Shown piece after piece: positions 1,062-13,169 of a DNA stretch of 64,000 nucleotides (position 1 is the stretch's first letter; the number at the start of each line of letters is the position of its first letter). This DNA is from Eledone cirrhosa (Eukaryota), in assembly GCA_964016885.1 (NCBI GenBank), contig OZ024741.1, forward strand, positions 121,334,001-121,398,000. Direction: 5' to 3'. Under the pieces are notes generated by a model. The model saw only the letters and a program-made list of their open reading frames with translations, was not told the DNA's origin and did not search any database. Made by a program: the position numbers and the translations under genes.

Positions 1062-1173
1062 TATCTATCAATCTATCTATCTATCTATCTATCTATCTAT
1101 CTATCTATCTATCTATCTATCTATCTATCTATCTATCTATCTATCTATCTATCTATCTATCTATCTATCTATC
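1062..1173. repeat. (TATC)n / GATA microsatellite abutting the 5' end of Tx1 element A
   Basis: Long near-perfect CTAT run read directly. Confidence 0.97.
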
Positions 1174-1405
1174 AGATCTAGCTGTCGTCTGTTCTACAGT
1201 GTGGATGTCATTCACTTCGCACAGAAGTTTTGTTCAAATTTATTGAGGAAATTTTGTGAGTTCAAACTTAATTTTGATACAATTGTGTAGCTTGACCCTC
1301 CGTCTGAACTGTCAGGCGGTGGGTCAGCTCATCTTCACCCCTCCTAGAGGTGAAAAACCTGTTTTAAAAAATTTTGTGTAAAAAAAAATTTCAATCGTCT
1401 AACAA

Positions 1406-3313
1406 ATGTTAAACGCAGCGAACGAAAATAGTGGTGGGGGGACAGCGGTAAGAGTTGTAAGCTCGCACGCTTTAGTCCCCCCTTCCTTCCCAACTAACGT
1501 CATAGAGAAGGAAGGAAAAATTAAAATAAAAACAGACGAATCTGCGGAGAAAAAAAATGACGAAAACACAAATCTGGACATGGATTCCAACAACGAAAAA
1601 AAAAAATTTGAAAAATTGCATGACAATACTAATAACACAAACAAAGACACAACAAACACAAAAATAACATTTGAAAATAACACCATATCAGAAAGCAAAG
1701 CAGACGACAAAGTCAACAAGATTTCATTTGCACAGAAAACAAAGAAATCTTTGACTTATATAGCGGAAAACATTTCAGATGTGGTACGAAGGATCACGGA
1801 CGCCAAACAATACATAAGTGAAGGAGAGAATGGTATTTTATCGGTAAAAATGCCTCAAGAATTCACGAAAGACATTGAAAGCCGAACGGTCAAGTTTCGG
1901 ACCATCAACAACAGTACAAAAAAACCTGAACAGCCTTCTCAAGCAGATATCAAAACAGTACTCACAGAAGTACTTAATGAAACCACTTTCATAAGAAAAG
2001 ACAGACTGTATGGAAGCCTAGCAATTATCATGAAGAACGAATCGGCGGCAAAAAAATGTGCTTTGTCACCGATTCGTTCGAAAAATTTCACCTTTTATCC
2101 ATCTTATATGGGGAAAAGAACTCAACGCATATGGCTGGATGCAATGATGCTAGATGTGGACTACTGCTGGCTCATAGCTGGCTTCATTGATCCAGTGAAT
2201 GACAACGTGATTTCCATTGGGAAAACCACAGGCAATGCGTTCAGTGGAACAGGTATAGAGCTGGTAGTGCAAATGAAGCCTGAACGCATCGCCCAAATAC
2301 CCGACAGAATCCTATTAGAGAACCACGGGTATATAAACATTAGCGTGGAGGGGAGAAGGCCGTCCTGCCATATCTGTGCAAGCAGAGGGCACCTGAAGGC
2401 CGCTTGTCCCCAACTCAACAAAAAGAAAACCCTGCTACCAACACCAGCTCCACCACCACCACCACAACAGATAAACAAACAACAAAACTCAGTCCCACCC
2501 AACCCGTCCCTCAGTAAAACCACACCACCACCACAACACAAACAGTCACAACACATTACCCCAAAACAAAATACAGGCCCACCCAACCTCTCACTCAATA
2601 AAACAACACAACCACCGCAGACACAACACACAACACAGTCTAACATAGTGACATCCATCTCCCCCACAAAGAAAACCAACACGGAAACATTACCAGCAAA
2701 CATACCTCTTCCCTCCAACACTGAAGATAACCCAACGAATTCGGAGGAAGAAACGGAGTCCTTCAGACAGATTAAAAGGAAAAAAAGAAAACATGTGCAA
2801 AACACACAAGGCCAAACAGCCCCCACCCAAATGTCAACACAATCCAACAAAACAGAAAACACCCCTCCAGCAACAAACAAAACCAAACTTGCCCCTCCCC
2901 TCTTCGAAACACTCACACCATCCGAAAAAAAGACATTACACTATACTTACATCAACAGAAACAATAATAAATTAAATGAACTCATATACAATAATCCTTC
3001 GGTACAAACCGAAGGGGTAAACTTTGTTTCCTCAGAAAACTACCCACATTTAAAACTAATAAAGATCCCAATGAACCTCTACCAAAAACTAAAAAAGGAT
3101 TTTAAGGAGGACGTAGGACCACCCTCTGTCAAACCCATAAACCGCGTCCTACTAAAAAGCTTTCCCCCTCCCCTTCCCTTCCCCAACACAACTCCAAACA
3201 CCCCAACCCCACCACACACTGACGACCCCACACCACCACAAGACACCCCTTCACCCAACACCCCCGACCCCATGGAAGTCGTGCAACCCGAACCCCGGGA
3301 AGCGGAAAGGTAG
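1406..3313 (+). CDS. Tx1 ORF1p, nucleic-acid binding protein with zinc knuckle, 635 aa
   Basis: CHICASRGHLKAAC (CX2CX4HX4C), Pro/Thr/Gln-rich low-complexity C-half, basic KRKKRK patch; homologous to 7250-9028. Confidence 0.85.
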   Translation: MLNAANENSGGGTAVRVVSSHALVPPSFPTNVIEKEGKIKIKTDESAEKKNDENTNLDMDSNNEKKKFEKLHDNTNNTNKDTTNTKITFENNTISESKADDKVNKISFAQKTKKSLTYIAENISDVVRRITDAKQYISEGENGILSVKMPQEFTKDIESRTVKFRTINNSTKKPEQPSQADIKTVLTEVLNETTFIRKDRLYGSLAIIMKNESAAKKCALSPIRSKNFTFYPSYMGKRTQRIWLDAMMLDVDYCWLIAGFIDPVNDNVISIGKTTGNAFSGTGIELVVQMKPERIAQIPDRILLENHGYINISVEGRRPSCHICASRGHLKAACPQLNKKKTLLPTPAPPPPPQQINKQQNSVPPNPSLSKTTPPPQHKQSQHITPKQNTGPPNLSLNKTTQPPQTQHTTQSNIVTSISPTKKTNTETLPANIPLPSNTEDNPTNSEEETESFRQIKRKKRKHVQNTQGQTAPTQMSTQSNKTENTPPATNKTKLAPPLFETLTPSEKKTLHYTYINRNNNKLNELIYNNPSVQTEGVNFVSSENYPHLKLIKIPMNLYQKLKKDFKEDVGPPSVKPINRVLLKSFPPPLPFPNTTPNTPTPPHTDDPTPPQDTPSPNTPDPMEVVQPEPREAER

Positions 3314-12000: not shown

Positions 12001-12490
12001 CCGAGGGGCTTTACCCGTTCGAGAAAGGCTCTACAGACACGGGCGCCCGGGTAGGGACCCCGCCAAAAAGATCTGTCCCAGATGCGTGTGCGACGAGGAA
12101 ACCATTGCACACGCATTAGTACACTGCTCGGGCGTAGCCGATCTGTGGGGCTATGTCGAACAACTGCTGTCAAGGGTGGTACCGATCCGGTTGACCACCG
12201 AGTCTATTGTAATGATCAAGCCGCCTCCCCCCTTCAAAGATGAAGCAGAGGCGGTGTTTCTGTGCGTAATAGCCATGGCGAAAGAGGTTGTATGGTGGAC
12301 GCGTCTGAAAGGACTGAGGTCGGGCACCTTTCTCTCTGGCCAACAACTGGTCCGTTTCTTCCGATATCATTTCGGAAGAAGGATCAGGATGGAGAGAGAG
12401 GTGCTGCACCCCAGCCGTTTCTATGAAAGATGGGTGAAAGTGGCGAGAATGGCCCGTGTGAATGGGCCTTCACTCTACATCAGACTATAG
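9053..12490 (+). pseudogene. Tx1 ORF2 (APE-RT-ZnF) interrupted by one in-frame TGA at 9893-9895
   Basis: Track ORFs 9029-9895 and 10019-12490 share a frame with no other stop between them. The TGA aligns to TGG (Trp of NNRWW) in element A. KAFD and YADD are intact. Confidence 0.9.
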
Positions 12491-13169
12491 GTGAGGAAGA
12501 TGAAAGACCAAGGGAGCACCCCTTCTCTGTGCTCCTGAGGAGAAGGGTTGCACACCTTTTTCGGGGGTGTGTGCGAACCCCCAAGGCGCCTCCTCTCTAT
12601 TGAGGATTTTGTTAAAAATTTATTTTTTGTTATATCTTATTTTATTTTTATATTTTGTTATTGCCTCCTCCTTATTGAGGACGCCTTTTTGTGTAAACTC
12701 CCCCCTTTGTACTTGTCCCACTTTTGATGCCCTAGTGGCAAATAAAAGAAATATATCTATCTATCTATCTATCTATCTATCTATCTATCTATTCGGGGAT
12801 ATATCCATTTATCCGTCCATCTATCCATTCATCCATCAATCTTTCTGCTGACATTTAACCATTCAAAAATCGGAGACTTGCTGTGTATTTAAACCATATG
12901 TAGATTTTGTTGACAGGATCTAGCTGGAACTACTTTCTGTTGTTTCTTATTTCAACCTTATATTTAAACGCTTTCGTGAATTGGAAAAATAACGTAGATA
13001 GTTATGGTAGCGGTAAGACGTCAACACAGTCGCCAATGAGTGACTCAGAGTTAGCATGCGTTAAAATACGAACACGATACCTCTCAAGTGGTATGGAGGT
13101 CGTTTTTGTTCCTTCTCAACTAGATCTAGCTGGAGCTCCTTTCCGCTGCCTCTGATATTGGTCTTAGTC

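Follow-up and report, generated by a model that had tools for sequence, protein, structure and literature searches.

Introduction

The closest described systems are LINEs of the Tx1 clade that insert into microsatellites. Their published targets are (TC)n, (TTC)n, (TTCC)n and (TTTC)n, and tandem insertions around a target-site duplication (TSD) are known for SINEU-3, which is mobilised by Tx1 (PMC4494074, PMC3812793). In octopus, 80 consensus families of L1-Tx1 have been reported, 13 of them recently active in O. vulgaris (PMC13282606; also PMC8967140); the text and supplement of the former and the available parts of the latter give no target site or TSD for these families. A TATC or ATT target for Tx1 was not found in the literature searched, and a TATC target was absent from the available parts of PMC4640811, PMC8869645, PMC9115989, PMC9004415, and PMC5203782; Repbase and Dfam lay outside that search and may list it, and the supplement and Fig. 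3 labels of PMC4494074, likewise outside the literature covered, may list further Tx1 targets.

Here we analysed a window of 64,000 nucleotides from Eledone cirrhosa that contains two LINEs, A and B, embedded in TATC repeats. Our main reading, to which we assign a probability of roughly 80%, is that A and B are separate insertions of young Tx1-like sister families at TATC motifs, with TSDs of 15-24 bp, likely made through nicking by the APE endonuclease.

Results

Arrangement of the two elements

A preliminary description had claimed the layout TATC-A-TATC-B-TATC in one orientation and without poly-A. The tracts, the ORFs, and the AATAAA junctions were all found:

1062..1173, + strand: TATC tract upstream of A, (TATC)28, that is 28 units; contains the 5' target-site copy of A
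1174-1175: AG, extra junction bases between the (TATC)28 tract and A
1176..7001, + strand: element A, full-length LINE; first bases ATCTAGCTG, last bases AATAAAGAAATC; ends set from other copies
1406..3313, + strand: A ORF1, 635 aa; CCHC knuckle at aa 321-334
3347..6784, + strand: A ORF2, 1145 aa, APE-RT-zf-RVT; uninterrupted frame, an RT motif bearing two private changes
7002..7032, + strand: TATC spacer between A and B, serving both as target copy (3' for A, 5' for B)
7033..12753, + strand: element B, full-length LINE; first bases approximately ATCTCTGGGATGG (7033, though the start may lie as far in as 7037), last bases AATAAAAGAAATA
7250..9028, + strand: B ORF1, 592 aa; CCHC knuckle, core like RRM+CCHC (ZCCHC3-like) proteins (E 0.05)
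9053..12490, + strand: B ORF2, APE-RT-zf-RVT; reading frame broken by a TGA stop at 9893-9895
12754..12792, + strand: TATC tract downstream of B, (TATC)9.8, then a degenerate TCCA-type repeat

AATAAA stands at 6990-6995 in A and at 12741-12746 in B, in both cases with TATC within a few bases and no poly-A. The middle TATC tract covers 6999-7036 (10 units) and overlaps the spacer. Nucleotide identity between A and B is 59% in the 5'UTR, 66% in ORF1, 84% in ORF2, and 78% in the 3'UTR, and protein identity is 46% for ORF1 and 83% for ORF2, in agreement with the earlier statement that the two differ throughout and are no recent tandem duplicate. The window is also, as had been pointed out, rich in other simple tracts although both copies sit at TATC: perfect tracts of at least 16 bp comprise 87 AT, 23 AC, and 10 AG against 4 AGAT, and three of those four AGAT tracts are the A/B element junctions.

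The RT motif of A ORF2 is KASDSVDH; KAFDRVDH is the form in 67 of 68 related ORFs. Private ORF2 changes number 7 in B and 22 in A (p = 0.008), so that B is weakly favoured as the later insertion; the junctions themselves are compatible with either order. Both A (1176) and B (7033) open with ATCT, and the ATT lineage described below starts directly after ATT; the 5' ends of all three may start inside the target repeat. Extra bases at the 5' junctions of other copies vary from 0 to 7.

The window holds further repeats. Right after B, at 12940-13660 on the - strand, lies a decayed LINE fragment with RPDIVL...EPEVPFE, which we take to be a restriction-like endonuclease motif. A LINE C-terminal region bearing C2H2 fingers and presumably RTE-like occurs twice (29060-30049 and 47154-47891, - strand), and a - strand fragment at 35421-36014 resembles, we assume, the C-terminal part of a Penelope-like element. 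A minisatellite of about 36 bp at 60595-62181 yields open frames on the + strand.

Class of the elements

The only Pfam domains of ORF2 were PF03372, PF00078, and PF13966 (APE, RT, zf-RVT), with RNase H absent. The best PDB matches of the APE domain were human L1 EN/ORF2p, and the APE catalytic motifs were intact across the aligned families. The families combine the features of the APE-type L1 group, namely an N-terminal APE, an RT, a C-terminal CCHC, 5' truncations (49 of 84 copies in the flank set below), and TSDs of 15-24 bp. Their ORF1 is of the RRM/zf-CCHC type instead of Transposase_22, as expected of the Tx1 clade: a CX2CX4HX4C knuckle is present in both A and B, and the look-alikes of ORF1 have a ZCCHC3-like RBD plus CCHC (0.90-0.93), which we treat as a lead. 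ORF1s of the RRM/CCHC type accompany Tx1 in non-mammalian animals (PMC5203782). The nearest named protein homolog was from Argonauta hians (62%), a metagenome scan returned only relatives at 33% identity or less, and a named Tx1 reference was absent among the matches of the protein searches with these elements. By architecture the A and B families would be Tx1-like.

Families, copy numbers, and age

Exact-pattern searches of 3.0 Gb of genome counted 715 A 5' ends, 1,516 A 3' ends, and 376 B 5' ends. The copies fetched were mostly 98-99% identical to those of the window, in which A and B are each 99% identical to their own family and 84% to each other. Among the 49 full-length A copies checked, ORF2 was open in 24 and both ORFs in 13. 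Judged from these copies, A and B evidently belong to two young multi-copy LINE families. On single contigs under two other organism labels, an A 3' end runs into a TATC repeat (second label), and a B 3' end is followed by TATC and then by a B-like 5' end (third label).

Some A copies form arrays with identical spacers (L008, L009, L050-L052, at G000:C1:348917508-348929421), and the pairs L111/L112 and L387/L388 share identical junctions. These arrays and pairs are best read as tandem or segmental duplications, not as separate insertions.

TATC at the flanks

Flanks were scored in 89 copies with both ends, from which five were removed whose 5' flank was element body. The remaining 84 had been selected by similarity to the window copies and include some segmental duplicates (L111/L112). 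Of the 35 full-length copies, 33 had TATCTATC within the 30 nt upstream of the element, as had 37 of the 49 that were 5'-truncated (70/84 in total), compared to 509 of 398,800 random windows (0.13%) in 200 kb taken at round-number positions. The truncated copies speak against the pattern that the preliminary description had set against its own reading, that is TATC at the 3' end only, with random 5' flanks. The opposite-strand sequence GATAGATA occurred in none of the 84 5' flanks; of other repeats, (TA)5 occurred in four, (TC/GA)5 in two, and (CA)5 and (ATT)3 in none.

An unselected count gave TATCTATC within 10 nt at 218 of 348 reverse-strand A 5' ends (63%); reverse-strand ends were used because reverse matches were listed once per end and forward ones repeatedly. 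Hand counts of the first 100 ends listed gave about 92 B 5' ends with TATC upstream, and for A 3' ends TATC 83, TATA 11, TCTC 2, TAAA 2, TATT 1, and other 1. No poly-A was present at the 3' ends of the 89 copies. A LINE is regarded as microsatellite-specific when more than 20% of its flanks are of one repeat type (PMC4494074), and both the unselected and the selected proportions, with the wrong strand at 0/84, place these families above that threshold in the manner of Kibi and Koshi. The repeat is not the (TC)n or (TTC)n of Kibi and Koshi proper, given (TC/GA)5 in 2/84 5' flanks and TCTC at 2/100 3' ends. Specificity is leaky: 17 of these 100 A 3' ends continued with something other than TATC, 12/49 truncated copies lacked TATCTATC upstream, and several lacked a TSD.

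Target-site duplications and target motif

Direct repeats containing non-TATC letters flanked 27/84 copies (shuffled flank pairs: mean 2.4, maximum 8), and under a strict rule TSDs were found in 16/84 (shuffled: mean 0.07, maximum 1). Twenty A copies were fetched because they failed the pattern of TATCTATC within 10 nt. In 18 of them the 3' end lay where expected, and 13 had a TSD of 16-21 bp, 11 beginning TATCT and two TATAT, several of them in unique DNA. Among the pooled 102 copies, 26 TSDs were distinct and satisfied the strict rule; they measured 15-24 bp (median 19), and every one began TAT, a count biased toward such starts by scoring TSDs from the first base after the element.

Upstream of the TSD, T occupied position -2 in 24/26 and C position -1 in 22/26. 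Position -1 lies outside the duplication, since in 10 TSD copies the element ends in A and the genome has C there; the bases upstream of the TSD are supplied neither by duplication nor by RNA pairing. At TATCTAT[AGT] sites, TC preceded the motif in 9/10 insertions and in 13/106 background sites (p = 6e-7), a contrast that favours recognition upstream of the nick. The TSDs indicate that the target pre-dated insertion and point to a short motif of about YC|TATCTAT, of which (TATC)n tracts are the densest source. The earlier proposal of separate, target-directed insertion is upheld by the flanks of the truncated copies and by the TSDs in unique DNA; its view of the target as a long tract gives way to the short motif. 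A search for an empty site at locus L071, over four contig sets, showed among the matches listed no contig that joins the two flanks directly, with the 3' flank uncovered. L015 and L400 carry 2-3 TATC units at the 3' side only, so a small, tail-like share of the 3' repeat can apparently be element-made, at few junctions.

Stacking

The 5' flank was another copy's 3' end in 33/84 copies. Up to six same-strand ends were found within 7.5 kb (L141), and the stacks include other families with the same junction. Stacks would form because a copy's own flanking TATC tract is itself a target. LINE stacks at octopus GATA microsatellites would be explained in this way, a point of relevance to microsatellite markers and assembly.

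Sister lineages and other targets

In a quick IQ-TREE phylogeny of 32 ORF2 proteins, whose outgroups included no named Tx1, families A, B, C, D, F, and G clustered together (7 rows, SH-aLRT 100), with A and B on separate branches. Beside this TATC group stood an ATT lineage, found with the P0001 and P0002 queries, within a group of support 100 that includes the Argonauta protein. About 60,000 first-look candidates were obtained for the whole lineage, a figure that is not a copy count.

The ATT lineage (L171-L250, e.g. G000:C2:144889091-144896391) shares 66% identity with A in ORF2 and 59% in APE, and its ORF2 is open in many copies. At all of its 60 3'-end loci (56 distinct), AATAAA was followed by a few bases and then (ATT)n, and all 14 located full-length 5' ends came after (ATT)n. 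TSDs of 18 bp were seen at L171 and L192. Among 14 apparent truncations, ATTATTATT lay upstream in five and TATCTATC in none; several other apparent truncations were alignment breaks within element sequence. At L171, L231, and L249, ATT-lineage copies lie in the (ATT)n tail of an interspersed repeat whose end reads ...GTAGAAACA and which we presume to be an octopus SINE. This repeat is a possible target or partner of the ATT lineage.

Family F of the TATC group (L251-L280, L361-L370) was found not at (TATC)n but at CTCTC|TATATC, within a degenerate minisatellite of 32-70 bp, with one 18-bp TSD seen (L255). The single copy of family G (L365, G000:C1:433818400-433826000) ends AATAAAGAAACCAC, then TCTATATATAC. 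By their junctions, the further sister families seem to have the same target or a variant of it.

Discussion

Mechanism and alternatives

We infer that the endonuclease is specific for TATC/GATA. The APE endonuclease would nick the GATA strand at about YC|TATCTAT, the first nick falling on one side or the other of the first T of TATC (in top-strand register), as bracketed by the TACC, TCTC, and TAAA junctions. It would possibly fall at a TpA step, the step that L1 also cuts, at TT|AAAA (PMC13295347). The RNA would end a few bases past AATAAA and read into UAUC repeats that pair with the nicked strand and prime reverse transcription, a pairing like that put forward for SART1Bm and R1Bm (PMC7265360), which would allow poly-A to be skipped and a TATC unit to be added at times. 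A second nick about 19 bp downstream would produce the TSD, and each insertion would leave TATC at both sides as a target for the next copy.

It could instead be priming alone that selects the site, with a loose endonuclease and a UAUC tail annealing to whichever nicked strand it fits. The absence of poly-A at all 89 ends, the occasional TATC units at the 3' side only, and the tolerated TATA targets would suit such a process, and annealing to the target has been proposed for SART1Bm and R1Bm (PMC7265360). We nevertheless hold it unlikely, for the preference reaches upstream of the TSD, beyond RNA pairing (TC at -2,-1 in 9/10 vs. 13/106), and in random DNA (TA)n tracts are some 70 times as numerous as (GATA)n (222 AT vs. 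3 AGAT tracts), yet receive about a tenth of the insertions. In TRAS1/SART1, moreover, endonuclease swaps determine the site, and a beta-hairpin matters (PMC1919474).

An element-encoded (TATC)n tail combined with random integration, the 5' tracts being neighbours' tails or part of the element, would account for the 5' flanks formed by another copy's 3' end and for the ATCT start of both A and B. It is very improbable: 21/31 truncated copies not preceded by another element still follow TATCTATC, and the TSDs in unique DNA, which start TATCTAT and often lack an extra unit, refute it. Equally improbable is random insertion with later retention in microsatellites, or an A-B pair made by tandem duplication and divergence, since, although some identical A arrays with identical spacers are tandem duplicates (L008/L009, L050-L052), strand and register are strict (wrong strand 0/84), the 98-99% identity among copies leaves little time for selection, and A and B match their own families far better (99%) than each other (84%) and sit on separate branches of the tree.

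Under targeted insertion by a TATC-preferring endonuclease, a wider picture can be drawn, which we offer tentatively and at slightly less than even odds. Tx1-like LINEs may be radiating actively in octopods, dividing the genome's simple repeats among themselves through recent retargeting of their endonucleases (CT|ATC, TT|ATT, and, within a minisatellite, CTC|TATATC) while sister proteins still share 66% identity; as they stack, they may also start and extend (GATA)n tracts. Neither target would yet have been described for Tx1. To our knowledge, target change in APE endonucleases is poorly understood because most known site-specific LINEs that differ in target are only very distantly related. 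The TATC and ATT lineages would be a natural target-switch pair: both are abundant in the same genome, where many copies are intact, and since their targets differ at 66% identity in ORF2 and 59% in APE, domain and loop swaps can map specificity. Candidate positions are the fixed differences in the alignment, among them S versus I in the beta-hairpin loop. The data also suggest a compact enzyme for repeat-targeted insertion.

Comparison with known systems

The preliminary description spoke of a new site-specific integration system. We would rather speak of a new target of a known one, as Tx1 LINEs of TC, TTC, TTCC, and TTTC are already described. Kibi, Koshi, and the crocodilian Tx1 families are likewise two-ORF APE-RT LINEs specific for a pyrimidine-strand microsatellite (PMC4494074, PMC3812793); the elements reported here differ in their targets, TATC and, in the sister lineage, ATT, and in their mollusc host. 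The octopus L1-Tx1 families are very likely of the same class as A and B and are possibly the very families. R1-clade elements, that is SART1/TRAS1, R1Bm, Waldo at (ACAY)n, and Mino at (AC)n, are also guided by APE into short repeats (PMC7265360, PMC1919474). They belong to a different clade, and SART1Bm inserts with poly-A, whereas the A and B families insert without. Human L1, the best solved-structure match of the APE, has TPRT with TSDs in common with them but prefers its sites weakly, carries poly-A tails, and has an ORF1 of the Transposase_22 type, where A and B have a CCHC-type ORF1 and a strong TATC preference. Dong of the R4 clade targets (TAA)n, the same repeat class as the ATT sister lineage (PMC3812793), and Dong-R4 is active in octopus (PMC13282606); R4, however, is a restriction-like-endonuclease clade (PMC4640811), and the ATT sister lineage has an APE.
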